Part shown: positions 13,138 to 37,808 of the stretch, piece after piece
How positions within the stretch are numbered: position 1 is the stretch's first letter
Layout: each line of letters opens with the position of its first letter
Source: Candidatus Latescibacterota bacterium
GTDB lineage: Bacteria; Latescibacterota; UBA2968
Direction of reading: 5' to 3'
Length of the DNA: 64,000 nt
Assembly (NCBI GenBank): GCA_965198115.1
Contig: OZ240241.1
Span: 3,872,001-3,936,000, forward strand
Program-made: the position numbers and the translations under genes
The notes under the pieces: model-generated
What the model saw: only the letters and a program-made list of their open reading frames with translations
Told to the model about the DNA's origin: nothing
Database searches by the model: none

Positions 13138-13780
13138 CGGCACCAATCTTCTTTGCCAGTTCCAGTCGCCCGGGAGGGCCGCCCACCATGATCAGTTGTC
13201 CGGCACCGCTGACCTTCGCGCAAATCAGGGTAACGAGACCGATGGGACCCGAGCCCTGAACAGCAACGGTATCGCCGAACTGAATGCCGGATCGCATAAC
13301 CCCGTGGACACCGATGTTGAACGGCTCGGCGAGGACGGCAACGTCGGCCGGCATGTCGACTTTGAAGATGGCTTCTTCGGCGTGCTGGAGGTTGATGTAG
13401 TCCGAGAATCCACCCCGCAAATGCGGTGAGTCAGCGGGATCCAGGAAGCCGTAGATGCCGACGGGCGTTCGTGGGAAGAAAACGACGCGGTCACCCTCCG
13501 CCAGTGCGTTTCCGAAGAGGTCCTGCTTCACGTTCGCGCCCATCTTGTCGATGATGCCGACGTTCTCGTGACCGAGGAGGATCTCGCCTTCGAGGCGTTG
13601 ATGTTCCCAGTTGTGCAGATCCGTGCCACAGATACCAGCCAGTTCTGTCTTGAGCAGCACGGCATCCGGATCCGGGTCGAGCACGGGGTATTCACGGATG
13701 TCGAATGTCTCGCCGACCATCACGGCGGCCTTGGACGTCATTGCCATGGTTTCGTCCTTACCGAATCAACACCTGCCTGG

Positions 13781-13808
13781 GTAGGGCCACGGCATGCCGT
13801 GGCCCTAC
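13781..13808. repeat. GTAG-type REP palindrome
   Basis: Perfect 28-bp palindrome GTAGGGCCACGGCATGCCGTGGCCCTAC. Confidence 0.8.
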
Positions 13809-13836
13809 GATTACTTGTTACCGGGCGCTTTTACGG

Positions 13837-14652
13837 TCATCGCTTTGCCGGCCACGGCGTGAACAATGCCCGCTGTTCTTCACTGTATCTCTCGAGCGTC
13901 CGGTCGAGCACGTGTTGAGGCTCGTCCATCGTACCGGCGTTTTGCGACATCAGCCAGAAGGGACCGTAGCCGACGTGAATAGTCTTCCTCGTCTGCTCCG
14001 ACTGATTCGTCACGCCGCCGTGACGCAGATTCTCCGTAAACAGAATGACATCACCGGCCTTCGCTTCGAGCGGGACCACACCCGGTTCCGTATCTGGGTC
14101 CCTTTTGTAAGGCGCCTGGAGATGGCTGTTGTGCGTTCCGGGGACAACGCAGAACGCACCTTGTTCCTCTGTCACATCGTGCACGAAGTAGATGAAGCGG
14201 ACCATCCGACAGTCGATGCCGTTGTCGTTGTAGCTGTAGGTGTATTTATCGCCTGTCGGCCGATGCATGCCGGACTGATTGCCCGTGTAGCGGATTCGGA
14301 TTTCGGAATTGTTGATGGTGACGTGTCCCTGAACGATACCTCGGGCATAGCTCATTGTCGGTTCGTGATTCACGAGAAGATCGAACGCTGGATCCGCGTT
14401 CCAGAAGTCCTCGATGATCAGCGTATGGCCCTCACCTCTTTTGCCCTTGACGAGATAGCCCAGCTCTTCGTTGACGTGATACTCGCTGTCCCACGCGCTC
14501 ACCTTGCGAGGCGGCAGATCCACGTGCTCGAGCCCGTGTGCCTCCAACCGGTCGACCGCCTCCGCGAGCGAGCTCACCTCATCCGGGGAGAGAAAGTCCG
14601 GCAGGACCAGATACCCCTGCCGATCGAATTCATAGATTTCGGTCTCTGTCAT
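13837..14652 (-). CDS. PhyH-family Fe(II)/2OG dioxygenase
   Basis: FDRQGYLVLPDFLS, GAFCVVPGTH and GDVILFTENLRHGG motifs; first iron motif reads HRP (no acidic residue). Confidence 0.88.
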   Translation of the reverse strand: MTETEIYEFDRQGYLVLPDFLSPDEVSSLAEAVDRLEAHGLEHVDLPPRKVSAWDSEYHVNEELGYLVKGKRGEGHTLIIEDFWNADPAFDLLVNHEPTMSYARGIVQGHVTINNSEIRIRYTGNQSGMHRPTGDKYTYSYNDNGIDCRMVRFIYFVHDVTEEQGAFCVVPGTHNSHLQAPYKRDPDTEPGVVPLEAKAGDVILFTENLRHGGVTNQSEQTRKTIHVGYGPFWLMSQNAGTMDEPQHVLDRTLERYSEEQRALFTPWPAKR

Positions 14653-14683
14653 AGTTCCAACTTGTCCGGGTAATGTGCCGTTG

Positions 14684-14769
14684 ACCGTTCACCCTGAGTA
14701 TAGGTCTGGCGAAGGCGACGGCCGCTGGGCGGAGAAGTCATTGGCCCCTCGTATCGAAGGGCGAACGGT
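14684..14769 (+). repeat. Variable-core hairpin repeat, copy A
   Basis: ACCGTTCACCCTGAGTA-N51-TATCGAAGGGCGAACGGT. Confidence 0.8.
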
Positions 14770-14773
14770 ACTT

Positions 14774-15190
14774 TCAGGACTTTGTTATCGTAACTATCCC
14801 CGCATCCGCATCCACAACCACACGATCACCAGTGGAAATGTGATCGAAGGGATTCTCTTCCAGATCGCTCATCATGGGAATCTCGTTCACGATACACCCG
14901 AGGGCCGCCAGGCCATCCACTTCGACGTTGACGAATGCCGCCGGTGCCTGACCTTCGAGTTGGGCCAGATTCAGGATCATCGGTGTTCCCGACGACCCCT
15001 TCGTCGATCGAATCACCAGCACGCGATCCTTCAGACTCTCGCCCTCGAGCGGGTGTCCCACCGCGATGATCTTCCCGGTGACGGCATCGACCTCCCCCCA
15101 GAAGGAAAGCGTCGCATCCGCAACCAGCGCTTCACCTTCCGCGCGACCAGCCACAACGCCCTTGCCGCGAATTTCAATCGTCTCACCCAT
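14774..15190 (-). CDS. Aconitase X swivel (small) subunit, DUF126
   Basis: GRAEGEALV, SFWGEVD..TG.I...HPL.GES and KGSS motifs; ATG at 15190. Confidence 0.9.
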   Translation of the reverse strand: MGETIEIRGKGVVAGRAEGEALVADATLSFWGEVDAVTGKIIAVGHPLEGESLKDRVLVIRSTKGSSGTPMILNLAQLEGQAPAAFVNVEVDGLAALGCIVNEIPMMSDLEENPFDHISTGDRVVVDADAGIVTITKS

Positions 15191-15282
15191 GAATCTCTCA
15201 AGGAAGCTTGAAACCTCAGAACACACCGGAAAGGATGGTTTTCCCTCTGTGTATTCTGTGTGATCTGTGGTTCCCGGGCCTT

Positions 15283-16530
15283 TCAGTCGCCCATCCACTT
15301 GCCTGCAATCGCTGCCCGGACGCACGGCTCGGTTTTCGCAACAATCGATTCACACTCGATCATCCCACGCGAGTAATGGGCCTGCTTGAATCCGTGGGTG
15401 ACGATGCGTTTGTAGGGGATCCGCATGTTCGTGGGACACGTGTCGGTGAGGATTCTGCCACCCGCTTCTTCGATGATTCGCGTGTAACCCATGGCGTCCG
15501 CGTTGCCCTTCGTGCCCTTCGCGGTATCGATCCACAGATCTACGCCGTCCGCGATCTTCTTTCCCTTTAGAAGATGTGCGAATTCGGCGATCTCGCGAAT
15601 CGATGCGTGGGGACACCCGAGGATACAGGCATCGATCTCATCACCGGTGGTCTTCCGCAGGGCATCGTACTGAGCTTGTAGTGTTTCTGAGTCGAACGTG
15701 ACGAAGTCTTCCGGCACGTCGTCGTGGAACGCTGTTTCGAGGGTCTGGGCTTCGGGTGTGACGCCGGCGATATGGGCGAGGGTGACGCCACCCGAAGTTG
15801 CGAGCGCCGCACACAGTTGTTTCGCCTCGTCTTGACTCGGCCGGCCGCAGCCGTTGAATACGGGTGCCCCGAGCCCCGCGATCTTTCCGGCGAAATAGCC
15901 CAGCGCCCCCCAGTCGGTCGAATGAGTCAGGTCCGCAGTCACCTCGATTCGAACCGTTCCCTTCCGATTTTTGTCGAGCAAGACACCGAACTCGGGCACA
16001 AGCCCCAGAAGAGAGGCCGCGATGGCGCTCTCTGTCCCGTGTCGTGTCGTGCGTGCGCCTAGAATCGTATTTGCGTAAACCACGGCCGATGATTCGGTCC
16101 ACGCACAGACCTCACCTTTAACGGGTACATTGCCGACCAGATAGGGGGCGCACGTGAATGTGGGGATGAAGCCTGCATCGGCAGCGAGGTCTGCCAGTTC
16201 CTTCTGCATCGCGACCTGCTCCGGATCGTTCTCGGGTACGTCCACATCTTCCATGGTGATAAAAGCAGCGTGAACGGTGCAGTAACAGCCTTCGGCGGTT
16301 CGATGTTCACACGCCTCTTTGAGATCCGCCATGTATGCCTTCATGGTCTCTTTCGAGGCATTCCTGGCCATCAGGTTCGGAACGGGCAGTAGGGCGTGCG
16401 TATTGTCACACTTGATCAGCCGTTCGGCACCCATGACATCGCCCCACTGGACGAGCCATCGCATACATTTCGCCAGATAGTCGCCTCTCGATCCGTCCAG
16501 AATCGCCTGCTGCTCGCTCGTCAATTCCAT
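15283..16530 (-). CDS. Aconitase X catalytic (large) subunit, DUF521
   Basis: TFTCAPY, WTESSAVVYANTILGART, LGCPHAS and TDTC motifs. Confidence 0.92.
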   Translation of the reverse strand: MELTSEQQAILDGSRGDYLAKCMRWLVQWGDVMGAERLIKCDNTHALLPVPNLMARNASKETMKAYMADLKEACEHRTAEGCYCTVHAAFITMEDVDVPENDPEQVAMQKELADLAADAGFIPTFTCAPYLVGNVPVKGEVCAWTESSAVVYANTILGARTTRHGTESAIAASLLGLVPEFGVLLDKNRKGTVRIEVTADLTHSTDWGALGYFAGKIAGLGAPVFNGCGRPSQDEAKQLCAALATSGGVTLAHIAGVTPEAQTLETAFHDDVPEDFVTFDSETLQAQYDALRKTTGDEIDACILGCPHASIREIAEFAHLLKGKKIADGVDLWIDTAKGTKGNADAMGYTRIIEEAGGRILTDTCPTNMRIPYKRIVTHGFKQAHYSRGMIECESIVAKTEPCVRAAIAGKWMGD

Positions 16531-16566
16531 CGTGAATCCTCAATTGCACTGGAGTAATGATCCGCC

Positions 16567-16650
16567 ACCGCTCACCCTGAGTAGAGGATTGGTGACGACT
16601 CGTTCCTGTGGTCGTCAGGTAAGGCGGCGATCCTCATATCGAAAGGGCGA
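16567..16650 (+). repeat. Variable-core hairpin repeat, copy B
   Basis: ACCGCTCACCCTGAGTA-N53-TATCGAAAGGGCGA. Confidence 0.78.
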
Positions 16651-16677
16651 CAGGGGCGGAATGGCAAGAAATCCACC

Positions 16678-16717
16678 AAACAAGAAAAGCCACTGCAGTC
16701 ATAGCTGCAATGGCTTT
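16678..16717 (-). terminator. Probable intrinsic terminator downstream of PhyH 16841-17830
   Basis: Stem AAAGCCAYTGCAG with a 6-nt loop, followed on the minus strand by TTTTCTTGTTT. Confidence 0.5.
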
Positions 16718-16840
16718 GTTCTTGTTCCGCCTATTGGGCTGAGTAGTCGGACGCGAAGCGTAATGACACGCCCGCTCTCCCCGTCGCCCGCTCACATCCC
16801 CCAACTCTCTACACCCCCGCCCTTCTACTTGACGCCACAG

Positions 16841-17830
16841 CTAGGCACAATCGACATCCCCTTCTTTCCACCGCCCGAACAGGACTTCCTTCTGCTCACC
16901 CTGGTTGATCTTCGACATGCGCTCGCGCGTTTTCGACCACAAGTCGGTCCAGACGCCCGCGTCCTTGAGCTCGAGCTCGGGATTCTTCTTGCTACGGACC
17001 ACGAATCCGGGAAAAGCCTCCCGTCCGGTGTGCTGGCCGGTCGGGTTGTAGCGCAGATCGAAGCTCCACCGGATGCGGTCGCTGACGTTCGAGAGCGAAC
17101 CGTGGACCGTGTGTCTGTTGAGCAGGATGACGTCGCCGCGTTTAGCGGGCAAAGGAATCATCCCATCGGCATCGAAGAACTTCTCTGGGATCGGCCTTCC
17201 GCCCTGCCCGCGATAGTTGAGGCAATGAGTTAACAGTCCGGAGCGATGGCTGCCAGGCACGACTTTCAGGGGCCCCTGCTCGAGGTCTGTGTCCTGGAGC
17301 GAAAACCAGACGGTGAGCATCTGCGTTTGGTCCGCTTCCTCGATGACGACGCCGTTGTCCTGATGCCATTGAGTCGCACCCAGGATCGGCTTGCCGAGGT
17401 CGTTCGTCGGCAGGATCGACTCGGGCGGCTTGATCCGGACGTGCTGAACTGGGTTGGAGTAGATCTCGGGTCCCAGGATAGATTCGATCGCGTCGATGAG
17501 TGGCTCGCAGACGAACGCGTCGAGCACGGCCTGGCCTGCCCAGAAGGGGGTGTCGGTCTTGCAGTTCATGAACGGGAGAGAAAAATCGAAGTACTGTTTG
17601 TGCACATCGCCGGTTTCGATCACGAGCTTGATGAAGCGCTCGCCGAATGGCAGCCCTTCGAACCGAGAGGAGATGTCACCCTTCTCGTAGAGCTCGTCGA
17701 TCAGTGTGTCCAGAACGTCTTCGTATTCCTCGATCACCGCATCGAGCACCTCGTGCGGGATGACGTTCGGAACGATGACGTAGCCCTGCTCTTCGAAATG
17801 GTCCAGCTGCTCTTGCGTGAGATGCGCCAT
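16841..17830 (-). CDS. PhyH-family Fe(II)/2OG dioxygenase
   Basis: FEEQGYVIV, WHQD, VVPGSH and HGSLSN.S.RIRWSFDLRY motifs. Confidence 0.92.
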   Translation of the reverse strand: MAHLTQEQLDHFEEQGYVIVPNVIPHEVLDAVIEEYEDVLDTLIDELYEKGDISSRFEGLPFGERFIKLVIETGDVHKQYFDFSLPFMNCKTDTPFWAGQAVLDAFVCEPLIDAIESILGPEIYSNPVQHVRIKPPESILPTNDLGKPILGATQWHQDNGVVIEEADQTQMLTVWFSLQDTDLEQGPLKVVPGSHRSGLLTHCLNYRGQGGRPIPEKFFDADGMIPLPAKRGDVILLNRHTVHGSLSNVSDRIRWSFDLRYNPTGQHTGREAFPGFVVRSKKNPELELKDAGVWTDLWSKTRERMSKINQGEQKEVLFGRWKEGDVDCA

Positions 17831-17955
17831 CTGATGTCTCCTTAAAGCGCGCGGGTAAAACCTTAACGGTTGACAGTCTCAATCTTTTGCCCACGGGCCT
17901 GACTGCCCTATGTAGCTCTAGCGAAGGTGCGTCAATTGCCACACATTGTCAATGG

Positions 17956-19495
17956 TTACTGGGGTTCTCCAAAAGCCCAAAGGTGGTTGGCTGTGCGCAA
18001 ATATAGCGTGTTGTCGACCACAGCGGGGGTGGCGTAGATCCCTTCCCTGAAGTCATTTCGCGAAATCAGCTCGAATTTCTCGCCCTGGGCGAGGACGAAA
18101 ATCGCACCACGTTCCGCGGCGATAATGACCCGATCCCCGACAAGGATCGGTGTGGCGTAGTATTCGCCCCCAAGCCCCAGCCGCTTCTGATAGTGAACCT
18201 CGCCGGTCTGGAGGTCCAGGCAGGAAACAAAACCACCCTTCTTCACAAAGTACACGCGATCGTCGTAAATCATCGGGGATGCAACATAGGGGAGTGCTTT
18301 CTTGTGTTCCCAGAGCACGTGGCTCTTGGTGACGTCTCCGCGTCCTCCCGCCCGGACTGCGAGCATCACGTTACGTCCCGGTCGGGCCTCCGCGGTCATC
18401 GCAGGTCTCAGCTCCCCAACCTCCCACTTACCGTCTCCGTCCGCATCGACAAGGCGAAATGCGTCCTGGATCCGGCCTTCAGGCAGTTCTGACGCACTGA
18501 CTCCGTCGTCGCCATCTTTGTCGAAGTGGGACACGAAGCGCACCGGATCGCTCTGTACGTCCTGCGGAAGCTGTACGTCAACGTCGAAGATGGTGGCGAC
18601 CTTTTCGGGTCCCGGCACGTTATCGGTCGTCCAGCCCCCGAAAACGAGCACATTGCCAGACCCGATGGGAGAGGGACAGACAACGATAGGAAGGTTGTTA
18701 ACGACCCAGTTCTCGCGCCCCGAGTTCGCATCATAACCTCTAAGTGTTCCCGTCCCTCCCACGACCAACTCAGTTCCGCCCTCATGTCGCCACATGTAGG
18801 GAGATGAGAAATTCACTCCGGCATCACGACGAGGCGTCATCCACCGCTCTTCGCCCGCGTCGGCAGCAAAGCAGTAAACCGCGGAGTCGCCCTCGATTGC
18901 ACCATACCAGGAGGTGCCAGACACGTCTCTGACGAGATAGAGGGCATCCCCGTGCAAGACAGGTGATGTCCCTGTTCCGAACTGAGTCTGTGGGATCGGA
19001 AACACGCGGTCCCAGACGACCTCACTCTCGTGGTTGAGGGCGATCAGACCCATAGGCTCCGAAGTAGGCGTAGATGCGTTCCGCGTCTAGACAGATCGTA
19101 GGAGCGGCAGGGGAGCTGTCCCGGTGATAGAATTCCTCCTTCCCGCGCATCTGGAGCTCTTTCAGCCAGACAAGAGAGCCATTCGATCGATCGTAGCTTA
19201 GGACGAGAAGCTTTTCGCCCTCGTATCCCGTCAGGAAAATCTTATCGCCCCACACGACCAGTGACGAGCTGCCCAAGGGCACCTCGTGCTTCCACAGGAC
19301 GTTCACTCCGGGGCCGAATCGATCCGGTACGCGTTGATCAGCGGCAGTAGCCGATCCATCGGGCCCCCTGAACTGCGGCCAGGCGGCGTGCGCCTCAGAG
19401 AACACGACGAACACAAAGATCGCGAAGAAGATCCGCGGCAATCGCCAAGGATGGAAGATCGTCGGAGCGGTTCTGTAGTTTCGGTTATTTGTCAT
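17956..19495 (-). CDS. Secreted PQQ/BamB-like beta-propeller protein with EF-hand-like insert (frameshift near 19050)
   Basis: Signal peptide followed by WPQFRGP; SPVL repeats; DKDGDDGVS and DADGDGKWE motifs; ends ATPAVVDNTLYLRT. The start codon is uncertain. Confidence 0.82.
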
Positions 19496-19576
19496 CTGTT
19501 CTCTGTCCTCTGCCATTTGGACGCCATCGATCGCCCACCGCCCACCGCCGACTGGTTTGCCATCTACCGTCGACGG

Positions 19577-20464
19577 TTCACTTGCTTTTTGTGATGCTCC
19601 CCGACACTCCGGACTCCGGGCCGATGAGTGTCATCGATGCCCTTCCACGCATAGGGGTCTTCTCCGGCGATCATGACGATGTCCCGCACGTCGGCACGTG
19701 CGACCCCACCACCGCCTTCGGGCACACGCCAGGGGAGGAGCGACTCGGCACTCATATAGTGATTGACGAGGACACGTCGATGACCCGATTCAGCCTTGTT
19801 GGGGAAGGATCGATGGAGCAGGTAGCCATTAAAGAAGACAAGAGCACACCCGCTTCGACTTCGACGGGGATCGTCTCGTCATCACGGTAAGGGAATTGGT
19901 AGGATTCCTGGGCCCCGTCGAACCGCGTGTCTTCGTGGTCGTGTTGGGGATACAGAATGCCGGGGGCGTGCGAGCCGGGAATGACCCAGATGCACCCGTT
20001 TTCGGTCGTCGCATCATCGAGGGCGATCCAGCCGCCTGTCAGCGATCGGTCCCGGGTCGGGATGTAGATTTCGTCCTGGTGCCACGCCTGACCCGGCATG
20101 CCGGCTGATTTGATGAAGTACATCGATTGCATGCATTTCACGTTGGGTCCGATGATCTTGGTCAGCACATCGACCATCGTGCGCTGGGCCAGATAGCGGT
20201 GTTGAACTGGGGAGATCTTGTGAACCTGGTGAATGCAGAGGATTCGCTGGAGGATTTCGTCGTCGGTTTCGTCACCCTTGAAGTCCGGGAGGTTCCGGAC
20301 CTCGCCCCACTTGCCGCGACATAGATCGACCGCATCGCGTCTGAGCTCCTCGATCTCCGACGTCGAGAGGGCATTCGGGACGACGAGGAAGCCGTTTCGT
20401 GGTACGATTGAACGTGGTCGTCAGTGATGGTCGGGTAGACCCACTCGGGTGCGTTGACGGTCAA
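19577..20464 (-). pseudogene. PhyH-family dioxygenase with several frameshifts
   Basis: KCMQSMYFIK, GQAWHQDE and NGCIWVIPGSH motifs, plus YMSAESLLPW, spread over four ORF fragments. Confidence 0.82.
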
Positions 20465-20631
20465 GAACTCAGCCCTGATGCGGTGAAGGAATCCAATTCG
20501 GTGCAGGAAAAGGTTACCCCGGGCACCGACTGGTCATTAATATAGGGCCTTGCCGAAAACGAACCAAGATAGGCGAAAACCCTGGATACGAAGTCGCGAA
20601 GACACCAAGCAGAATGAGGTGAACCTCCGTG

Positions 20632-20666
20632 ACACCGTCACACTGAGCGCAGTCGAAGTGTCGGTC
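20632..20666 (+). repeat. Short hairpin repeat ACACCGTCACACTGAGC-GCA-GTCGAAGTGTCGGTC
   Basis: The same flanks recur at 49398-49454 with an insertion in the loop. Confidence 0.75.
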
Positions 20667-20753
20667 CTGGCCGATACCGAACTGTCACGTGTTTCTGGTT
20701 CCCTTGGTGCCCTGGGGTCTCGGTAGTTCAAGATCATCTGAAAGGAGAAGGCG

Positions 20754-21452
20754 TTGCCGGTTCAGCCGGGAGTGAAAGCCCTGACGTTTGACCTGTTCGG
20801 TACCATCCTGGATTTGGGCGGAAGCCTGACGCCTTACATCGGGGCACTTCTGGAATCCAAGGGCTCCGATACGTCGGCCGATGAATTCTGGCAGCAGTGG
20901 CGCTACCGCCAGCGATTGGAGCAGTTTCAGGATACGATCATGGCGCTCGGTCACGGGGGCTATCTCGAAACGGTTCGACGCGCGTTCGTTTACACCCTTG
21001 GGTTGAACAAGGTGGAGGCGTCTGCGGATGAGGTGAAGACGTTCCTCGAGTGCTGGCGCGAGCTGTCACCCTTCCCGGAAGTGAAAGATGCGTTGCCGAA
21101 ACTGCACGCGCAGTATCGTCTCGTCGCGCTCTCCAACGGCGATCCGTGGTTCCTCGAACACCTTGCCGAAAACCGTATTCAATACGACTTCGACGCTGTC
21201 ATCTCGGTCGAGCAGGCAGGCGGCGGCTTCAAGCCGCACCCCGGCGTCTACCGAAAGGCGGCTACGATGATCGATCTCGAAGTCGGCGAGTGTATGATGG
21301 TGTCCGCCAATTCGTTCGACGTCGTCGGGGCACGAGCGTGCGGCATGCGTGGCGCCTGGGTCAACCGCTACGACCTGCCGTATGAAGACACCCCCTATCG
21401 AGCAGACGTGACGGTCGATGACTTCACACAGTTGGCGGAAGCCATTACGTAA
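20754..21452 (+). CDS. L-2-haloacid dehalogenase type II (HAD superfamily)
   Basis: FDLFGTILD, ALSNG, FKPHP and VSANSFDVVGA motifs. Confidence 0.88.
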   Translation: MPVQPGVKALTFDLFGTILDLGGSLTPYIGALLESKGSDTSADEFWQQWRYRQRLEQFQDTIMALGHGGYLETVRRAFVYTLGLNKVEASADEVKTFLECWRELSPFPEVKDALPKLHAQYRLVALSNGDPWFLEHLAENRIQYDFDAVISVEQAGGGFKPHPGVYRKAATMIDLEVGECMMVSANSFDVVGARACGMRGAWVNRYDLPYEDTPYRADVTVDDFTQLAEAIT

Positions 21453-21558
21453 GGGCGCCACTGCGCGTAAGACTGAGCGCGAGAGGTGTTGATGTCGCCC
21501 GCTCGGCAACCGATGAGACCACTGAGAGTTGCCCACATCTCTTCGAGTACAGATCACA

Positions 21559-23008
21559 TTGAGTAGACCCAATATCATTCTGATTTGCTCTGACCAGCAT
21601 AGCTCCCGATACACGGGCTATGCCGGGCATCCCCTTGTCAAGACGCCCAACCTCGATCGTTTGGCGGAACGGGGGATGGTCTTCGCGAACACCTATTGTG
21701 GAAACCCGGTCTGCACGCCCGGACGCGCGTGTATGATGACGGGGATGTATCCGTCTGATGTGGGATCTTATTGCAATTCAACGGTTTACGATGGGAGTGT
21801 TCCTACCTGGGCACAGCGTCTTTCCAAGGGTGGCTACGACTGTTGGGCCACGGGGAAGTTCGACATGAATTCCGATTTCCCGAGTGGATTCAAAGAGGTG
21901 GAGACGAGAAACGGCCATTATGACAATCCTGACATCACGTCCTTATTTCGGAATCCGCTTTGCTATCGGATGGACGAGCGACCGGATGTGGACGGTTGGC
22001 CGAGGGATGAACGACATCACGATGAACAGCTGACGCAGCACACGTTGACTTTCCTCGAGACAGAGGCGTCCGGCTCCGACAAGCCGTGGGTCTGCTGGCT
22101 GGGTATGAGCCAACCCCATCCGAAGTTCGTGGCACTTCGTGAATACTATGAGTTGTATCCGATCGACGAAATCGATCTGCCGGATGTCAGACAAGACGAT
22201 CTCGAGCAGATGCATCTCGTCTATCAGGCGATGAGGCACTTCAAACGAATCGCAACGTCGATTCCGGAGGATCGGATCAGACGGGCCCGGGCCGGTTACT
22301 ACGGGATGATTACCGAGCTGGATGAATATGTCGGCCAGGTCTACGATAAGCTGGAAGCGATCGGGCAACTCGAGAATACGATTTTCATCTATACATCCGA
22401 CCACGGTGAGTCGCTGGGCGAACACGGTCTGTGGCACAAGAGCACGCTCTATGAGAACGCTTCGCACGTGCCCCTGGTGATGGCGGGTCCCGGGATTCCC
22501 GGGGGGCACGTCGTCGATACGCCGGTTGCCCACGTCGATCTCGTAGCGGCGTTGTTCGAGTGGGGGGAACTGGACGTGCCGTCAAGTTACGGGGTCATTC
22601 GCTCGCTCCGTTTCTAACGGGAGATAAGAGTGGTCATCCTAGATGGACCTACACCGAAGCGCACTCCGAAGGGATGATGACCGGCGGTTTCATGATCAGG
22701 AAGGGTGCCTGGAAATACGTTTTCTTCACCTGGCACGATGGATTGTTGTTCAATCTGGATGAGGACCCCGGTGAGTTCGTGAACCGGATCGACGATCCTT
22801 CGTGTGCGGGTATCGTCAAGGAGCTTCGGACGATTCTGGACAGCCAAGTGGACACTGAACAGGTGACGCGGGACGCCTTCAACGCCCAGGCCGGGATGCT
22901 ACGCCAGTGACCGAGGGCAAGACGGAGGAAGAATTCGCCGCCCTTCTCGAAAGCCGGCTGGGCCCGGGTCAATCACGCCTGATGGCCGCCACTTACGCGA
23001 AATCTTGA
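21559..23008 (+). CDS. Choline-sulfatase-like sulfatase (frameshifts near 22585 and 22905)
   Basis: RPNIILICSDQH, CTPGR and SDHGESLGEHG motifs; collinear with the downstream paralogue. Confidence 0.85.
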
Positions 23009-23019
23009 GCCATCTTTTT

Positions 23020-23077
23020 CCGGGGCTTCAGCCCCGGTAATGTCTTTTCCGACCTTGACCACGGCTTCAGCCGTGGG
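23020..23077. repeat. Pair of GCTTCAGC-centred palindromes
   Basis: CCGGGGCTTCAGCCCCGG and CCACGGCTTCAGCCGTGG. Confidence 0.75.
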
Positions 23078-23118
23078 CCCTCATAGAACTGACTGACGCG
23101 GAAACCAAGGAAACTCCA

Positions 23119-24582
23119 ATGTCGTCCGGATCACGCCCGAACATCGTCTACATCTGTTCCGATCAGCATAGCTTCAGATACACGGGCTATGCCGGCCATC
23201 CGTTGGTCAAGACCCCCAACATGGACCGCGTTGCAGCCACGGGGACCGTGTTCGCGAACGCGTATTGCGGCAGCCCCGTGTGCGTGCCCGCGCGCGCGTG
23301 TCTGATGACGGGCATGTATCCTTCCGACGTGGGCTCCTACTGTAACTCCACACCGTGGGATGGCAGCCACCCGACGTGGGGTACGAGGCTGACCGAGCGT
23401 GGCTATCAGTGTCACGCGACGGGGAAATTCGATCTGAACGAGTTCGAGCGCGGTTTCAGCGAGAAGGATGTAAGGAACGGTCATTGTAGAAACCCGGATA
23501 TCACCTCGCTGTTTCGCAACCCGCTCTGCTATCGCCTCGGCGAGCGAGACAATGTGAACGGAAGTCCTCGTGACAAGCGGCACGGAGATTCAGAGCGAAC
23601 ACGGAATTGTCTCGATTTCATGAAGGATGAGCGTCCAGGCATCGATGAGCCGTGGCTCTACTTTCTCGGGCTGAGTCAGCCCCATCCAAAATTTGTTGCT
23701 CTACAGCAGTACTGGGATCTCTACCCGCTCGATCAGATCGACATGCCCGATGTGCGCGAAGACGATCTGGAGAACTTGCATCTGGTCTACCAGGGCATTC
23801 GCAGCGCCAAACGAATCGCAACGCCCATCCCTGAAGACCGTGTGAGGAAGGCACGGGCAGGCTACTACGGGATGATCACGGAGCTGGATGAATACATCGG
23901 TCAGGTCTACGACGCGTTGGACGAAGCCGGTGAGTTGGAAAACACGGTGTTCATTTACACGTCGGACCACGGGGAGTCATTGGGCGAGCACGGGTTATGG
24001 CTCAAGAACAACCTTTACGAGAACGCAGCGCACGTCCCCCTGGTCATGTGTGGCCCCGGTATCCCTGCGGGTAAAGTTGTCGAGACGCCCGTTGCCCACG
24101 TCGATCTCGTTGCGACGTTGCTCGATTGGGCAGGTGCGGACGGAATGTCGGACATGCGAGGCCATTCCCTGCTTCCGCTGATGAACGGGGAGACCGGCGA
24201 CCATCCTGGCTGGGCCTACACGGAGTCTCACTCCGAAGGCAACTGCACAGGGACCTTTTCCGTTCGAAAAGGGGATTGGAAGTACATCCATTTCCATTGG
24301 TACAGCGGGCTGCTGTTCAACTTGAGGGAAGATCCAGGCGAGTTTGTCAATCGTATCGACGATCCCTCGTGTGCAGACGTACTTATCGATCTAAAGGCTA
24401 TTCTGGACAGCCAGGTGGATACGGATCAGGTGACGCGTGACGCGTTCGAAAAACAGGATCGCGTCGTTCGCGGCCTGGCTGAAGGGAAGACGGAAGAGCA
24501 ATTCGCCGCGTTGCTCCAGGGACGTCTGGGCGAAGGTCAAGCAAGAGCGTTGGCATCGAAGTACGTGAGCGTCATCGTCTGA
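23119..24582 (+). CDS. Choline-sulfatase-like sulfatase
   Basis: RPNIVYICSDQH, CVPAR, GKFD and SDHG motifs. Confidence 0.92.
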   Translation: MSSGSRPNIVYICSDQHSFRYTGYAGHPLVKTPNMDRVAATGTVFANAYCGSPVCVPARACLMTGMYPSDVGSYCNSTPWDGSHPTWGTRLTERGYQCHATGKFDLNEFERGFSEKDVRNGHCRNPDITSLFRNPLCYRLGERDNVNGSPRDKRHGDSERTRNCLDFMKDERPGIDEPWLYFLGLSQPHPKFVALQQYWDLYPLDQIDMPDVREDDLENLHLVYQGIRSAKRIATPIPEDRVRKARAGYYGMITELDEYIGQVYDALDEAGELENTVFIYTSDHGESLGEHGLWLKNNLYENAAHVPLVMCGPGIPAGKVVETPVAHVDLVATLLDWAGADGMSDMRGHSLLPLMNGETGDHPGWAYTESHSEGNCTGTFSVRKGDWKYIHFHWYSGLLFNLREDPGEFVNRIDDPSCADVLIDLKAILDSQVDTDQVTRDAFEKQDRVVRGLAEGKTEEQFAALLQGRLGEGQARALASKYVSVIV

Positions 24583-25163
24583 TGTCCGCGTGTTCGAAAG
24601 GGTGCAATCGCTTTAGGGAGTCTACTCATGCGGATACTTGTCCTTGACGATGAAGATCTGTCCAGAACATTGATCCATCGATTGCTTTCGGCCGGTGGCC
24701 ACGACGTGCTGGCAGTGGATAATGGCAGCGATGCAATCGAGTCGCTCGTCGAACCGACCGGCCCCGGCCTTGCAGTTCTGGATTGGCACATGCCATCACC
24801 GGATGGGTTCGAAGTGTTGCAGAGGGTACGTGAGTCCGAACACGGCAAGCAGATTTACATCATTTTTGCGACCGTTCGAGGACATTCCGAGGAAATCGTC
24901 AAGGTACTCGAAGCCGGCGCAGACGACTACGTCACCAAGCCCTATGACACGGAAGAACTTCTGGCTCGCGTAAACGTGGGACAACGGGTTCAGAAACTGC
25001 GAAATCAACTGCTCGCGTCCGAACGGGACCGAGTTGTGCTGGAAACGGCCGGTGCGGCTGCCCACGAGATTTTCCAACCCCTGACGGCTGCGCTGATGAC
25101 GCTTGAAGTGATGATCGAGGAGTTAGGCGACGAGGCGCCTGCTAAGGGTTCGCGAATAAATAA

Positions 25164-26590
25164 GGCTATATCCGGATCTCTCAACGAGATGAAGTGGGTG
25201 AAGGTGCCGTGGTTCCTGGCATGGGGGCGCGGTTAGAGTGTGCGGAACCTCTTCGGAATCTGCTCAGGGATGTTTATGTCTCCGACGGTAAGGAAGATCA
25301 TATCGTTGAATGCGTCGAGTGTGCGGAATCCGCTGGCTCGGTTCTTGACGATTTGGACGATTCGGTTGAGGCCTTCGGCGATGGCGTTGGTAAGACGCGT
25401 GTTCACGAATGCGAGGACGCCGAAGAAGTGCTGTCGCAGGGTCCTGACGAACTTTCGCAGGGGTTCAAGTCGACTTCTGAGTGCGGACGTCGTCCAGCAT
25501 TTCAGGAAGCGTTCGGCAGCCCAGGGCGCTTTGTATTCCCAGAACTGCTCGAACTCGTCCTTGAGTCTCCAGGCTCTATAGATTCGGTAGTTCGCCTTCT
25601 CCAGTGCTTCGAGTGTCCGAGTATCCCCTCTGGAGCGTGTCGCTGAGTGCCGGTAGAGGAGCCATCGGAGGCCCTTCATGGCTTTGCGCTCATCCGGGGC
25701 AGCTTTACGCCACTGGTCCTTACGGACCTCGTCAACGGCGGCATTGAGAGCCTTGACGATGTGAAAGCGATCGAGGACCAGCTTGGCATTCGGACAGTGT
25801 TCCTGGATGGCTCCGATGTAAGCTTCAAGCTTCGCTCATGTCGCAGCAGGCCCACCCGATCTTGGATCTCCGGTAGGGACTGAGAGCCTCTGTGAAGAAC
25901 CGATCGATCGTTTTACGCGCCCTGCCGCGGCCAACCCACACCACGCAGGAGCGGTCCAGATCGTAAACGAGCGTGGCGTACCTGTGACGCTTGGCGTAGG
26001 AGATCTCGTCGATCCCGATGGTTTTGAGCCCTCGGATACGATGACCTTCACGAAGCCGCGTGATGGATCGGTGAAGGAGATCCGACAGCGTCGAGGCAGA
26101 GATGCGCAGTAACTCGGACGCCGCCTTCTGCGTCATGGTCTGGCAGTAGCGCAGCATGGCATACTCGAAGCGATACGTCACCCGAGAGAACCGCTCCGCC
26201 CACGGAATCTCCTCGACCACACGACCGTGGGTAGGACACCGAATCTCCCGAGGATGGTAGAGAAGCCAGACCCTCCACCCGCACACCGGAATGTCACGCC
26301 ACCGACGCGGATGGGGCATTGTGCGGACGATTTTACCTCGACGGCCGCACTCCGGACAACAACAACCATTCTTATGTGGCTTTACGGCGATGACGAAGCA
26401 GCTTCTCCCCTCAAACCACCAGCTGACAACACGGAACCCCTTGAATCTCAGCAGTTTCGATAGTAATCTGCTCCCGGTCATAGGTCGCACCCCCTTCGCT
26501 TTGATTGTCCTACACACACAACCAAGCGTAGGGAACGATCTATGACCTTGTCATTCTATAGTTTCACCGTTGAGAAACCCGGATAGAGCC
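25164..26590 (-). mobile_element. ISL3-family IS
   Basis: IRs GGCTCTATCCGGGTTTCTCAACG / GGCTATATCCGGATCTCTCAACG; 8-bp TSD ATAAATAA (25156-63, 26591-98). Confidence 0.93.
25233..26481 (-). pseudogene. ISL3 transposase frameshifted by a 7-bp tandem duplication
   Basis: Zn finger CPECG..CPTHG; IGIDEISY, CDMS, DRFHIV and TNAIAEGLN motifs; AAGCTTC doubled at 25820-25833. Confidence 0.88.
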
Positions 26591-26604
26591 ATAAATAAAC
26601 GGTC

Positions 26605-27818
26605 GATCTCAATGTTGAGCCATTGGCCGGATCGTGTAGTTCCAGTCGCCGTGGAAATCGTGCGGAGTGAGATCGATTTGGGTCATCTGTTCATCGGTCA
26701 CCTTGACCCCGTTAGGGTAGGGTCGCTTGTCGATCTCGGAGCGTACTCGGAGACCGGCTTGAGTGGTCGTTCCGGCAATGAGATTCACGGTTGCAGCCAG
26801 GCTGACCAGGGGCTTGCCTCGCCCAGTTCATAGCGATGAAGGAGAACAGGCGATGTTCGATCTTGTTCCACTTACTAGTGCCAGGAGGGTAGTGGCATAC
26901 GGTGATCGTCAGGCCAGTGCGATTCGCAAAGCGCTGCAGCTCCCACTTCCACAGCCGCGTCTTGGCGCCGTTGCTGCCGCCTGCGTCCGCCGTGATTAGC
27001 AGATGCGTCGAAGTGCCGTAGGCGGGCCGTCCCATGTTCTTCCACCAACTTCGGATCGCATTCACGGCGAAGCTGGCCGTGTCGTGATCGATACCGACAC
27101 TTACCCAGCCTTCATCACGGCTCAGATCATACACTCCATAAGGGATCGCCTTGCCCTGAGCAGGCACTATGAAATCGTGTACCTTCACACGCTCCGGGTC
27201 TCCCTTGGGTCGCCATTCTCGGCCAGGATTCTTGAAGTCGCCGATCAACTCTTTCTTCTTGGTGTCCACCGAGATAACGGGAAGGCCCTGCTGCTGCTGC
27301 TGGCTAATCCGATCATCGAGGTAAACGAACTGAGCGTCCCGATCCGGGTGTGCAGATCCCTCCCTTGTCTTCCGATTCGCCTGCAGCGTGTAATCGTGTT
27401 CGTGCAGGAGATTGGCAACGATCCTGGGGCTCACCGAATGCCCCATCGCTTGCAACTCGGCGGCCAGTTTGCGAGTGCTCTTCGATGTCCATCTCAGAGG
27501 ATTGTCGTCAGGCGACCCCGCAGTCGTTGGCTCGACCAGATCATTCAGGTCCTGCCACAGCGTCGGGTCCGTGTCGGCCTTCCGCTTACGACCGCCGCCT
27601 GGACGCCGGATGCGAGCCGGGTCCAAAGGTTCGTCCGACCTCAACTCCTGAATGCCACGAAAGATCCGCTCTCTGGACATTCCTGTCGCCAGAGCCACAA
27701 TCGCGATCCCACCGTGACCCAACGCTTCGGCTTCCGTGGCGGCCCACAGACGACGCGTGCGTTCCGTCAGCACCGGAGCCAAGGCTTCATACTTCGTTCG
27801 GAGAGTTTCGACGTCCAC
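26605..27818 (-). CDS. ISAzo13 transposase (1-nt frameshift near 26822)
   Basis: Protein identical to 6037-7030 up to FIAMNW. Confidence 0.85.
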
Positions 27819-28253
27819 ACTCCGAGCGTAAGATCATTACCTTGAAAAGTGCAGCACTTATTTCGTGGCAAACCCTAAGAGGGCCGTACAGGAGGTCCAC
27901 TTGGCGTGCTCGGAGATCGAGCGGATCGTGAAAAACATGAGATCGACAGAGAAATACCATACGCGACAATACATTGGCCAGACGCGGATCATCGATTTCG
28001 GTTCATCTACCGACAAGAAGGATGAGTGATACCCATCATTTGGTACGTCAATCGGCAACGCGTCGGGCTTTCGGGGACGCGCAGGATGACTGCGGGGAGA
28101 GGTCCCGCGTCCCGAGCAGATCACGCATTTGGTGACGTAGAAATCGCATCGACAGGATAGCCGTTCGTCCTCGATCCTTGGAAGTGCCAGCGTCTTTTTC
28201 GCGACTTCCTACGCGTCTTTGCGCCTTCGTATAAGGTGCCTGATGGAGTCAAC

Positions 28254-29722
28254 GTGGCAGACCAACCCAACATTCTGTGGTATTGCTCCGATCAACGCGA
28301 TTCGATACGATCGGGGCGTTGAACAATCCGAACGTGCATACGCCTCGCCTCGACGCATTCATGAAAGAGGCGGTGACGTTCGACTACGCTTACTGTCAGT
28401 CGCCCATCTGCACGCCCAGTCGATCGAGCTTTCTGACCGGGATGTATCCGAGCGCCGTAGGCGTTAACGGGAACGGGAATGATACCTGGCCTGACTATTA
28501 CGCCGAGCGTCTCCTTCCGAACATGCTCACCCGAGCTGGTTATTACTGTGGGCTGGTCGGGAAGCTGCATCTCGCAGGGGCGGCGAACGCCCTCGAGAAC
28601 CGTGTGGACGATGGCTACAGCTACTTCCAATACAGCCACGCGCCCAAAGGGCCCGACGACTTCGGACACGATTACGCCGACTGGCTCAGGCTTCAGGGAG
28701 CGGATCCGGCAGAGCTGCTGTTAGAGCACAACAAGATCGGTTCCTACCGCAAAGGGGCCACGGTGAAGAGCTTCGGCGGTGTTTACGAACCGACCGAGAG
28801 TCAGGACAACGTGCCCCCCCATTTGCATCAGACGCACTGGTGCACCCAGAAGTCGATCGAGTTCATCGACAGGAATCGTCGCGAAAACCAGCCCTGGATG
28901 CTGAGCGTCAATCCGTTCGATCCACATCCCGTGTTCGATCCGCCCTATGAGTATTACAAGCGATACGACGTGGCGGAAATGCCGGGCGCGCACTTTCGGG
29001 ATGGTGACCTCGAACATCAGCAGAGGCTCGTCGACGCGAACGTAGACTTCCAGTCCAAGCCGCAGCATCCCGACAAGTGGGACCACAAGCGCATTCAGGC
29101 CGCCTATTATGCGATGGTCGAGCAGATCGACCACGAGTTTGGACGGTTGTTGGATCACCTCGTAGCGATCGGTGAAAGAGAGAATACGATCGTCGTTTTC
29201 ATGAGCGACCACGGGGAGGCCTTATGTGACCACGGACTACTGCTGAAAGGATGTCGGTTCTTCGAGGGGCTGACACGAGTGCCGCTGATGATCTCCTGGC
29301 CCGAGAAGTATCAGAGGGACGTCATCAGCGACGCGTTGGTAGAACTCACCGATCTCGTCCCGACCTTCCTGGATGCGGTGGAGCTGGAAACACCCTATTG
29401 GGTACAGGGCAAGTCGTTAACCTCCGTTCTCGAAGGGTCGTCGACGGAGCACAGGGATTTTGTGAGAACCGAATTCTTCGGGGCCATCAACTATCCGGAC
29501 CAGACCCACGCAACGATGTATCGCGATCGACGATGGAAGTTTATCGACTACCACGGCAAAGACCTCTTCGAGCTCTACGATCTCGAGAACGACCCGTGGG
29601 AACATAGCGACCTGTCGGAATGCCCGGATCACCAGGGCACGATGTGCGATCTCATGCAGAAGAGCTTTGATGCCACGGTCTACGCGACCCCACCCTTCGC
29701 ACCAAGGGCCATGCCGTTCTAG
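28254..29722 (+). CDS. Sulfatase (frameshift near 28297)
   Basis: GTG 28254 gives MADQPNILWYCSDQ; the other frame continues RFDTIG...CTPSR, GKLH, SDHG. Confidence 0.88.
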
Positions 29723-29758
29723 TCGGCTCCTGCCAACCGTAACAGCTGTTACGAGAAT

Positions 29759-29808
29759 AGCCCGCTTCAGCGGGCTTGGCTACCGTAGTGGGGCTTCAGC
29801 CCCACGCG
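29759..29808. repeat. GCTTCAGC-centred palindrome doublet
   Basis: AGCCCGCTTCAGCGGGCT ... GTGGGGCTTCAGCCCCAC. Confidence 0.78.
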
Positions 29809-29818
29809 AAAGAGATCG

Positions 29819-30394
29819 ATGCCAACATTCACCGAGGTCATGGAACGCGTGGAAACCGAGTGCACCGAGCGTCACGTTCCCATGCTCGGTCGCGACAAAG
29901 CGGTGTTCCTTGCGGATCTCATCGAGAAGGCGAATCCTGTGCTCGTCGTCGAGTGCGGGTCGGCGATTGGATATTCCGGGCTGTGGATCGCGGATCGCTT
30001 GCGCAGCATCGGCCAGGGGTGTCTCTTGACGGTCGAAGTGGACAAAGGTCGAGCTACGGAAGCTCGGGCAAACTATGAGGCTGCTGAGCTGACGGGCTGG
30101 ATCGACAGTCGAGTGGGCGACGCGGAGCAGATGCTGGCCAGGCTCGAGGAGGAGGTCGATTTCCTCTTTCTCGACAACAACTTCGGCAATTACATGCCCT
30201 GCTTCCGTGCGATTGAGAACCGCCTGGTCGATGGGGCGACGATCGTGGCCGACAATGTCGGAATCGGCGAGAGCTCGATGCGCGATTATCTCGACCACGT
30301 TCGCTCGTCGTTCGAAAGCGAAACGCACTGGTTCGATGTCGGTTTGCCCTGGGTCGACCGTGACGCAATGGAAGTTTCCGTCTTCAGGCGGTAG
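29819..30394 (+). CDS. Class I SAM-dependent O-methyltransferase
   Basis: VVECGSAIGYSGLW, VDFLFLD and IVADNV motifs. Confidence 0.9.
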   Translation: MPTFTEVMERVETECTERHVPMLGRDKAVFLADLIEKANPVLVVECGSAIGYSGLWIADRLRSIGQGCLLTVEVDKGRATEARANYEAAELTGWIDSRVGDAEQMLARLEEEVDFLFLDNNFGNYMPCFRAIENRLVDGATIVADNVGIGESSMRDYLDHVRSSFESETHWFDVGLPWVDRDAMEVSVFRR

Positions 30395-30413
30395 CTGGTT
30401 TGATACCTTAACC

Positions 30414-30489
30414 AGTCCGCTTCAGCGGACGGAGTTTATCCTGAGCGCAGTCGAAGGGCTGCAGTAGCGTGAGACTTCAGTCCCACGCG
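30414..30489. repeat. Palindrome doublet with a 24-nt micro-element in the spacer (30434-30457)
   Basis: AGTCCGCTTCAGCGGAC..[GTTTATCCTGAGCGCAGTCGAAGG]..TAGCGTGAGACTTCAGTCCCACGCG. Confidence 0.75.
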
Positions 30490-30503
30490 CAGGGGAGGAA
30501 CCC

Positions 30504-31271
30504 TATGAGACCGGGATTCATGAGTTCCGTTTGTCCAAAACAGACGCTCTCCGAGCTAATCGGGTCCGCGAAAAAATATGGCTACGAGGGTATCGAGTTC
30601 CGCGTGGAGTGGGATCACAAGCACGGGATCGAGCTCTCCTCGTCGGAAGATGACATGGCCTCCGCTCAGGGAATGCTCGAGGACAGCGGCATCCAGGCCA
30701 CGTGCATCGCGACCGGCGTGCAACTCAACTCCACCGATGCGGCCGAGCACGAGAAGGAACGCGAATCGTTGAAACGATACATCGAGCTCGCACAAGGCGT
30801 GGGTGCTAGCCACCTGCGAGTCTTCGGGGATCCGGTTCCGAGGATGAGGCCAATCGGGATAAGGCACTGGGGCTTGCGGCGGAATCGTGTGCGGCGGTCG
30901 ATGATCACGCCGGCCAGCACAACGCGAAAGTGCTGATCGAGACACACACCAACATGCGTGCGGATTGGGCGAAACGGATCGTGGATGATTCCGGCGCGAG
31001 TAATGTGGGCGTTCTGTGGCACATCGGTCATCACATACGTCACGGTCAGTCCGTCGATGAGGCGTACGGCCACCTCAAGGGATATGTCGACCATATGCAC
31101 TTCAGCGCCCGCGAGGGAAGCCAGGTTACGGACGATGACAACAAGCGGACGGTCGATCTCCTTGCACCCGACGACTATTCAGGGTTCTTCTCCGTAGAGG
31201 TGATTGACCCGGACGATTCAGAAGCTGTTCTCGCACAACACATGGAGAAGTTCAAGACCTTCAGTCAGTGA
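30504..31271 (+). CDS. Sugar-phosphate isomerase/epimerase, TIM barrel (frameshift near 30840)
   Basis: YGYEGIEFR, LRVFG, LIETH and FSVEVI motifs. Confidence 0.8.
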
Positions 31272-31276
31272 TATGA

Positions 31277-31392
31277 ACCGCTCACCCTGAGTAGCGATCT
31301 AGTGGTAGCCGATCGTAGCGAAGCCACGGGAGTCAAACGAAGATTCGCATATCGAAGAGCCTGCCCCGAGCGGAGTCGAGAGGGCGAGCGGT
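31277..31392 (+). repeat. Variable-core hairpin repeat, copy C, with a micro-element in its right arm
   Basis: ACCGCTCACCCTGAGTA-N56-TATCGAAG[AGCCTGCCCCGAGCGGAGTCGAGAG]GGCGAGCGGT. Confidence 0.8.
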
Positions 31393-31408
31393 CGGAGTAA
31401 GCGACAAC

Positions 31409-32233
31409 ATGTCAGATTCGATCCCATACAAGTACGCGCTTTGCAGCGAAACCTTCGAAGATCGATCCCTGGCCGAATCGGCGCAGCTTACGGCAAAGAT
31501 CGGATACACTGGTCTCGAGTTGGCACCTTACACATTGTGTGACCTCGTGACGGATCTCGATTCGTCCGACCGGGCACGGATTCGTAAAGATGTAGAGGAC
31601 GCTGGGATAGAAGTGGCCGGACTGCATTGGCTGCTCGCGAACACCCCGTTCAGGCTGAACACGCCGAACGAAGATGAAAGAAGAGCTGCGGGGGACTATT
31701 TGGTCGAGCTGGTCGATTTCTGCGCGGATGTGGGAGGTGACACCATGGTGTTCGGGTCACCCGCCCAACGTGATCCCGCCGATGGCTTTGATCCGGCAGA
31801 AGCGTGGGAGTGGATGATCGAGTGCATGCGAAAGTGCGGAGAACGCGCGCACGACCGGGGTGTGATATTCTGCATCGAACCGCTCGGAACACCCTTTGTC
31901 ACCTGGATCGACGATGCCATGAGACTGGCCGAGGAAGTCGGTCAGCCTGGATTCGCGATGATGGTTGACTGCAAAGCCATGGCGCAGGACGACCGTTGGC
32001 CGGTGAGCGATCAGATTCGTCACGCATACGGATCCTTCCACCACGTCCACGTGAATGACCCGAACAGGCTGGGACCGGGAATGGGAGATCTCGACTTCAG
32101 CCCGATTCTGAAAGCGCTCGCAGAATTGGATTACGCCGGCTGGGTGTCGGTCGAGGCCTTCGACTTCGAGTCCGGCCGCGAAAACGTCGCCCGAACCAGC
32201 CTCGAAAACATGCAACGCATCGTGGAGAGTTGA
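31409..32233 (+). CDS. Sugar-phosphate isomerase/ketose 3-epimerase family
   Basis: GYTGLELAP, FGSPAQR, IEPL, HVHVNDPN..GPG.G and WVSVEAF motifs. Confidence 0.9.
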   Translation: MSDSIPYKYALCSETFEDRSLAESAQLTAKIGYTGLELAPYTLCDLVTDLDSSDRARIRKDVEDAGIEVAGLHWLLANTPFRLNTPNEDERRAAGDYLVELVDFCADVGGDTMVFGSPAQRDPADGFDPAEAWEWMIECMRKCGERAHDRGVIFCIEPLGTPFVTWIDDAMRLAEEVGQPGFAMMVDCKAMAQDDRWPVSDQIRHAYGSFHHVHVNDPNRLGPGMGDLDFSPILKALAELDYAGWVSVEAFDFESGRENVARTSLENMQRIVES

Positions 32234-32245
32234 ACTGTGCGTTCG

Positions 32246-32440
32246 ACCGCTCATCCTGAGTAGCGACCTAAGAAAGGGCGTCTACTATCAGATATCGTGA
32301 AAGCGTTGGACTCGCATATCGAAGGATGAGAGGTCGCAGCAGCGAAAGTGAGGGCCGTTCGTCCTTCGATACGGGGACAGTAGGTTTGCACCTTGGCAGA
32401 ATCCAATGATGGTACGATACCCCTACTCAGGATGAACGGC
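32246..32440. repeat. Variable-core hairpin repeats D (+, 32246-32334) and E (-, 32354-32440)
   Basis: ACCGCTCATCCTGAGTA-N54-TATCGAAGGATGAGAGGT and GCCGTTCGTCCTTCGATA-N52-TACTCAGGATGAACGGC. Confidence 0.8.
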
Positions 32441-32495
32441 AGCGACGGTCGTCATTCGCATTCTCCCACGATCTGAAACCCGATAGGACCATTGC

Positions 32496-35968: not shown

Positions 35969-35977
35969 TCTTTGTTG

Positions 35978-36513: not shown

Positions 36514-36566
36514 ACCGCCGAGTATAGCCACGATCGAAATCGAGAACCAGGAGAGAGGATTTTGCT

Positions 36567-36632: not shown

Positions 36633-36652
36633 CTGTGCGTCTATCTCAATCT

Positions 36653-37768: not shown

Positions 37769-37808
37769 GGCCGTTTCGATTCAAAAACGATGAGAGGGAA
37801 AGACGAGC

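Follow-up and report, generated by a model that had tools for sequence, protein, structure and literature searches.

The DNA stretch analysed here, referred to as the window, comprises 64,000 nucleotides of the genome of a Candidatus Latescibacterota bacterium (assembly GCA_965198115.1, contig OZ240241.1, positions 3872001-3936000; genome G000, 8.43 Mb, 59% G+C), and it carries five intergenic copies of a hairpin repeat in which two short, conserved arms enclose a long, variable loop. Copies A (14684-14769) and B (16567-16656), both on the forward strand, bracket an AcnX-type gene pair encoding a DUF126 protein and an LhpI-like protein; copy C (31277-31392, forward strand) and an inverted heterodimer doublet, with copy D (32246-32334, forward strand) as its first half and copy E (32354-32440, reverse strand) as its second, bracket a gene for a sugar-phosphate isomerase/epimerase. 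All scores behind these gene assignments lie below the curated cut-offs. An earlier examination of the letters without database searches (the sequence-only reading) had placed the five copies at these positions and strands and had named the same bracketed genes, and both hold.

The core lengths reported in that reading, 51, 53, 56, 54 and 52 nt for copies A to E between GAGTA and TATCGA (55, 57, 60, 58 and 56 nt with both TA), were confirmed, as was the inner stem of copies B-E, which is closed by 4-5 bp; in copy A the inner stem is partly decayed, with 3 of 4 pairs formed. The arms that it described as common are present in all five copies, but its right arm is exact in only 3 of 5, copy B having one extra A there; in copy C, the right arm is split beside the G.A pair by the insertion of a 25-nt copy of the hairpin in its short-loop form (31358-31382, forward strand).

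Across the genome, the long copies have the left arm ACCG-N-TCAYCCYGAG-T and the right arm RTA-TCGARGG-RYGA-N-CGGT, separated by a core of 57 +/- 3.3 nt including both TA (75 copies). Covariation was counted over 67 uninterrupted copies, among which kinship inflates shuffle tests. Outside TCAY, N and N' form a Watson-Crick pair in 51 of the 67, with all four pair types represented and a shuffle mean of 17.8, and the variable pair of CCY/RGG is T-A in 56 and C-G in 10. An unpaired tandem G.A/A.G is present in 66/67 copies and an A.C mismatch in 52/67, and the inner stem is paired in 48-51/52 and 20-22/22 copies of its two classes, except that the second class has a single position with a G-T wobble. 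The proposal of a family defined by structure, with conserved arms, is thus borne out by strong covariation. The suggested kinship with a short micro-element also stands, a short form whose loop measures 4-6 nt showing the same C-G/T-A covariation in 165 of its 173 copies. In DNA, tandem G.A pairs form stable structures, as do GNA triloops. Folding energy alone is weak evidence, because the z-scores of single copies range from -0.3 to -5.1, and the energy model scores tandem G.A pairs poorly.

A relaxed census of the genome returned 82 long candidates, of which 75 were kept after 7 lacking a closing inner stem had been dropped. When no more than one mismatch is allowed in the arms, 59 long copies are counted in the genome compared with 0 in the reversed genome, and the corresponding values for the short form are 173 and 2, which excludes chance. 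The 75 long copies make up 55 units, namely 35 singles, 17 tail-to-tail inverted doublets and 3 head-to-head inverted doublets, and these 20/55 doublets accord with the REPIN-like character that the sequence-only reading had proposed. None of the 55 units lies within a gene called by a simple gene caller, all being intergenic. Doublets are heterodimers of recurring subfamily pairs, which implies that a doublet is copied as one unit. With respect to the replichores inferred from GC skew, short copies are unevenly oriented, 104 to 69, and long singles number 20 to 15. In a survey of the phylum, the long form was matched in 15/168 genomes, five of which have single matches that look like chance.

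The elements come and go at these sites and the genes do not, as indicated by the congener G001, which retains the acnX pair and the isomerase gene in the same order with shorter gaps. At all four sites (4/4) the element is absent there, the orthologous stretches being 63 nt shorter at A, 101 nt at B, 75 nt at C and 188 nt at D and E, so that the genes stay where gain or loss had been envisaged at the bracketing sites. Among 30 copies from two genomes of the neighbouring genus, G002 and G010, 15 have two-sided synteny in G000, and a long copy is found there in 0/15. A gap of about 40 nt in the window (37768-37810) is occupied in both G002 and G010 by a doublet of the element, the arms of which are shared between the two genomes and the loops of which are unrelated. 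Among the matches listed from three DNA data sets of one study against window positions 13500-33400, no junction skipping a copy was seen, contigs being prone to drop rare variants.

The same arms surround a particular gene. PF01541 has four matches in G000, and around the small GIY-YIG gene at 214177-214467 lie three long copies, two upstream and one downstream, all of the C-G variant; 2 units lie within 1 kb of a small GIY-YIG gene, compared with 0.03 expected. Beyond this genome, the arms occur within 500 nt of 20/28 genes of the same GIY-YIG clade, on both sides of 13 of them and with loops of 4-59 nt, in Latescibacterota (the phylum considered here), Pseudomonadota, Bacteroidota and Ignavibacteriota, a count that excludes L036, which encodes a long fused protein, and L176 and L193, loci found through the motif itself. 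The controls gave 2/17 for a sister clade and 3/60 for distal windows. The GIY-YIG gene of G001 and the hairpins around it, about 735 nt together, have no counterpart at the orthologous G000 site, where the gap measures about 50 nt, and the unit is an insertion relative to G000; the G001 gap orthologous to the GIY-YIG unit of G000 holds a run of N. The protein encoded by the G000 gene (P0001) has UPF0213 proteins as its relatives in the PDB, and its AlphaFold2 model (predicted local distance difference test score, pLDDT, 88.6) has the UPF0213 structure 1zg2 as its top Foldseek match at E 0.007, with no match at E <= 0.001.

A parallel is offered by the Ssn system, whose single-domain GIY-YIG nuclease binds and cuts only hairpin single-stranded DNA (ssDNA) according to the accessible text of PMC11893778 (Chenal 2025), where an IS200/REP-like layout is pointed to and mobility is raised without being tested. 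As described there, Ssn (SsnA, cd10448) with its NTS-SRM repeats shares with the present family a GIY-YIG gene that encodes a single domain of about 100 aa, a hairpin repeat that is oriented, lies on both sides of the gene and is also scattered between genes, a wide phylogenetic spread and a TCAY-type 5' tag. The two differ in the enzyme, however. Six GIY-YIG proteins encoded beside NTS matches form a separate clade, and a grouping of P0001 with them was rejected in an approximately unbiased (AU) test (p = 0.0005; quick tree of 31 chosen rows, SsnA itself not among them). The identity of P0001 to NTS-flanked proteins is 32-41%, and the looser BLAST criterion of the Ssn paper (E < 1e-10) might still include it. 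They also differ in the repeat: the SRM search sequence, with its pattern read in two ways, occurs in 0/75 long copies and is not found near the G000 GIY-YIG gene, and a tandem G.A pair with loops of 4 to about 60 nt here contrasts with elements described as 20-50 nt in total there. At two loci of the Ssn-like sister clade (L030 and L032), hairpins 3' of the genes have the same CCTGAG...CGAAGG core with NTS-like ends, hinting that the two types of repeat may have a common ancestry. In the accessible part of a further preprint (bioRxiv 10.64898/2026.09.22.753630), NTS serves merely as a benchmark.

In organisation, the family resembles the REPINs, doublets formed by repetitive extragenic palindromic (REP) elements, and their REP-associated tyrosine transposases (RAYTs), as far as these are described in the accessible text of Bertels and Rainey 2011 (PMC3116915): both have extragenic inverted doublets with conserved ends and a spacer that is less conserved but constrained in length, compensatory changes, and a single-copy enzyme gene flanked by the repeat. 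Unlike in REPINs as described there, the partner is a GIY-YIG nuclease instead of an HUH transposase, the sequence that varies is located within the individual hairpin units and is itself unpaired, and 35/55 units are single. The CGTC-tagged REPs, which the accessible text of Di Nocera 2013 (PMC3733652) reports without a dedicated transposase, are similar in their TCAY-type 5' tag, heterodimer doublets and intergenic location, although their stems are given as 8-9 bp and their loops as 4-5 nt, compared with the internal G.A tandem and the long-loop form here. Some short copies of the present family begin with NGTCAT and have loops of 4-5 nt, and in a comparison based on the text description they may overlap a family listed in that paper. 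No literature on this hairpin, or on repeats tied to UPF0213-type genes, was found in a search that covered subscription papers thinly, and the supplements of PMC11893778 may list such loci. The family likely works in the manner of Ssn/NTS and is organised in the manner of REPIN/RAYT, without being a member of either as these are defined.

Because the same arms flank a small GIY-YIG gene in this genome and in other phyla, the window copies are likely to be gene-less selfish elements and not integron recombination sites. The explanation preferred here, with a probability of about 0.68, is that they are gene-less copies of a dispersed hairpin repeat inserted in a lineage-specific manner, whose arms also flank a UPF0213-like GIY-YIG gene, and which is probably recognised and nicked as ssDNA by the nuclease and spread, often in the form of inverted doublets, in much the way that RAYTs spread REPINs. 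Reading of the folded single strand would take place at the part of the stem that surrounds the tandem G.A pair, and a nick there would prime copying or recombination between copies. The loop, as a spacer that is not itself read, would be free to drift and recombine, the arms being retained. Short copies are inserted beside the G.A pair of long copies in 9 right arms and 2 left arms of G000, and these 11 arms suggest the place of the nick. The role as a nicking site, one of those listed in the sequence-only reading, is regarded as plausible.

Several observations weigh against this explanation. A looser pattern raises the count in the sister clade to as many as 4/17, with 21/28 in the clade concerned, and the motif is absent in 8/28 clade members. 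Most copies lie far from any GIY-YIG gene of this kind; in metagenomes, the gene accompanies 0/80 loci with flanks of up to 1.5 kb and 2/39 loci with short flanks (2/119 overall), and G010 carries 13 copies with no close homologue of the gene in a genome that is 91% complete. The GIY-YIG gene of G000 has no ATG, GTG or TTG before the first conserved tyrosines, only ATC, so that it may be inactive, and a second small GIY-YIG gene (G000:509002-510649; L002, L035, L042) is split in two by an insertion sequence (IS). Neither a target-site duplication nor a fixed insertion junction could be defined, because the intergenic DNA of G001 is too diverged and the junctions of short copies are ambiguous by 1-3 nt. 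In addition, selection acting at the level of the element alone does not account for arms that deviate by 1.4% in G000 while the loops of the nearest neighbours score no higher than 0.59. At the IS-split gene, a related but different hairpin lies before the gene and a short copy after it.

All 75 loop centres in G000 are distinct, with no near-identical pair and a mean pairwise alignment score of 11.3 compared with 10.9 for shuffled sequences, and folding calculations, whether parameterised for RNA or for DNA, detected no signal in them (mean z from -0.26 to 0.04). The claim that the cores are unrelated is sustained in that respect, but the cores group into subfamilies by their ends, and in one of these GC-GNA-GC occurs at a fixed mid-loop position in 16/21 copies, with 0.7 expected; the same motif forms the apex of short forms adjoining homologous GIY-YIG genes. 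An origin of the cores as captured genomic DNA was considered and rejected: blastn-short of the 75 centres against G000, with phage and plasmid collections outside the search, gave 1 match at E < 0.01, equal to the reversed controls. In the genome of a relative, G026, which has 26 long copies of a younger family, 25 of them of one length, the loops are alignable and homologous. Of 171 pairs of sites, 67 show all four haplotypes in a four-gamete test, fewer of them among neighbouring sites (p = 0.016), which points to exchange between copies. Since these loops are homologous and mosaic, they have been inherited with the arms and not captured. Many of the long cores seen in other genomes consist of further, nested copies of the element, and nesting is a plausible origin of the long loop. 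In eight metagenome copies (L089, L105, L107, L110, L126, L127, L132 and L137), the loops are variable and a central CAGGG is conserved, which matches a portion of the left arm in reverse complement and is perhaps the remnant of a nested inverted copy. Within G000, an IS lies inside the loop of one long copy (1337201-1338695) with an 8-nt duplication on both sides, and the end of this IS is the same as that of the window repeat family D12.

The best loop-neighbour score in G000, 0.59, compares with a best of 0.47 after shuffling, and the closest pair has identical arms (45/45) and a loop identical at 32/47 positions. As recent duplication followed by neutral decay predicts near-identical loops, either the arms are maintained in place, through host selection or conversion, or the loops diversify faster. 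The G000 family is old, and its arms appear to be maintained in place. A tentative alternative, itself compatible with the preferred explanation, is that the copies are domesticated sites now under host selection, either modulating the uptake or recombination of ssDNA, as NTS do in Neisseria, or serving as hairpins at transcript ends. The closest pair conforms to this account, as do the two orthologous sites at which G002 and G010, with flanking genes about 72% identical, have a copy in common with arms kept and loops unalignable. So do the scarcity of decayed copies (51/76 copies score at least 50 bits in a profile scan of G000, which added just 1 new copy) and the position of many units only tens of bases from the 3' end of a gene. 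The high turnover speaks against it, shared sites amounting to 0/4 with the congener and 0/15 with the neighbouring genus, and the two sites common to G002 and G010 could be independent insertions. In G026, where the diversity over 31 full-length copies, chimeric ones left out, is 0.20 in loops and 0.026 in arms, rare variants occur in both parts (5 in 26 arm positions, 21 in 41 loop positions) and common variants in loops alone (16, compared with 0 in arms), a pattern that would fit selection at the level of the element better than at the level of the host (Fisher p = 0.14, not significant).

Active diversification, in which each event of copying or repair would mutate or shuffle the unpaired loop far faster than the rest, is decidedly unlikely as the main account. 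It would explain the 75 distinct centres and the mosaic loops of G026, and it draws further on a strand-asymmetric loop composition (A 691 compared with T 547, G 704 compared with C 608), although this asymmetry lacks the excess of T expected from cytosine deamination. Three doublets have a common spacer of 14-15 nt at 0.70-0.86 identity and loops with shuffle-like scores of 0.16-0.32, which leaves room for faster diversification of loops, but an exchange of modules can also yield shared spacers. Against it, the closest pairs differ by ordinary scattered substitutions, and the three copies adjoining the GIY-YIG gene of G026 are identical or two positions apart.

It is quite improbable that the repeats are mobilised by a Y1 transposase (RAYT/IS200-type HUH) with the GIY-YIG gene as a passenger. 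There are 75 PF01797 matches in G000, and the doublet habit is like that of REPINs as described in PMC3116915, but a Y1 gene is located within 1 kb of 1/55 units, compared with 0.7 expected (56 of the 75 matches were used as loci), the link that recurs across phyla is with GIY-YIG genes, and the accessible text of Di Nocera 2013 (PMC3733652) reports that CGTC repeats flanking a tyrosine transposase gene were not found. About 25 of the 75 Y1 matches are near-identical full-length copies, one of which is located in the window at 40902-41261.

The sequence-only reading had also suggested a structured RNA family, which would have a conserved closing stem and a variable domain. The covariation, the frequent G-T pairs and the narrow length range are in line with this suggestion, yet it is even less probable than a Y1-driven spread: a search of the window against Rfam at the gathering score matched none of the copies, nor did one of both regions with the threshold relaxed to E <= 1, which yielded only a weak serC-leader match inside a gene. 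The loop centres lack a folding signal, single copies between co-oriented genes show no orientation bias (11 vs 11), copies are nested in one another and in other repeats, and a reverse transcriptase (PF00078) was not found in G000.

Integron attC sites keep structure over sequence and have bulged bases and a variable centre. The remaining suggestion, that the hairpins are attC-like recombination sites with the bracketed genes as cassettes, is next to negligible in spite of the folded and bulged arms, the variable centre and one of the 55 units being directly 5' of a truncated tyrosine recombinase gene (G000:6410043-6410700), because the gene order of G001, conserved without the elements, largely refutes it, the RYYYAAC/GTTRRRY boxes are found in 0/75 copies, as the sequence-only reading had itself remarked for the canonical cores, no integron integrase (TIGR02249) exceeds the cut-off in G000, the best match being the truncated recombinase, and the copies are scattered and point either way, many of them paired in inverted doublets, without R boxes, IntI, a cassette array or gene gain and loss at the sites. 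The surroundings of that unit (L272, G000:6405700-6410900) contain the 5'-truncated tyrosine recombinase gene, whose broken end is where the long copy lies, an adjoining IS and an attC-like box pair at 6407429, and are possibly a decayed integron-like locus unrelated to the hairpin family.

Further short copies are distributed over the window. One with a 5-nt loop (30436-30457, forward strand) sits in an unrelated REP-like palindrome, and two others are represented by their cores at 61689-61706 (reverse strand) and 63157-63173 (forward strand, of the 4-nt loop type). A nested pair of related hairpins, one within the loop of the other, is located at 60010-60075 on the forward strand. Genome-wide, short copies lodge within several further families of repeats, among them D13 and D16, two REP-like palindromes found in the window (29788-30493, 35825-36636 and 41788-41901), and for one repeat family that carries short copies, two empty hosts were seen.

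The kind of system to which these repeats belong is already known, and what is new is the link between hairpin repeats with long loops and a UPF0213-like GIY-YIG clade. Which enzyme spreads palindromic repeats of the CGTC-like type is an open question (Di Nocera 2013), and the present family adds a second GIY-YIG clade with a hairpin of its own, orthologous sites with and without the insertion for the repeat as well as the gene-bearing unit, and a predicted position of the nick. A bolder version, which is unlikely, would make the UPF0213-like nuclease a transposase-free mobiliser and the missing enzyme of CGTC-like REPs: it would nick beside the G.A pair and drive an exchange between copies that keeps the arms uniform, the loop of 35-40 nt would be shuffled and diversified many times faster than the neighbouring DNA, and the arms would work with almost any sequence between them. 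For annotation, repeats of this kind are not to be labelled as attC sites or non-coding RNAs. The long-loop form separates what must be recognised, namely two short arms, from a free part, a loop of nearly constant length and arbitrary sequence, and the nuclease, provided that it is active, would count as a new ssDNA-cutting enzyme that is sequence-specific and whose recognition arms are split.

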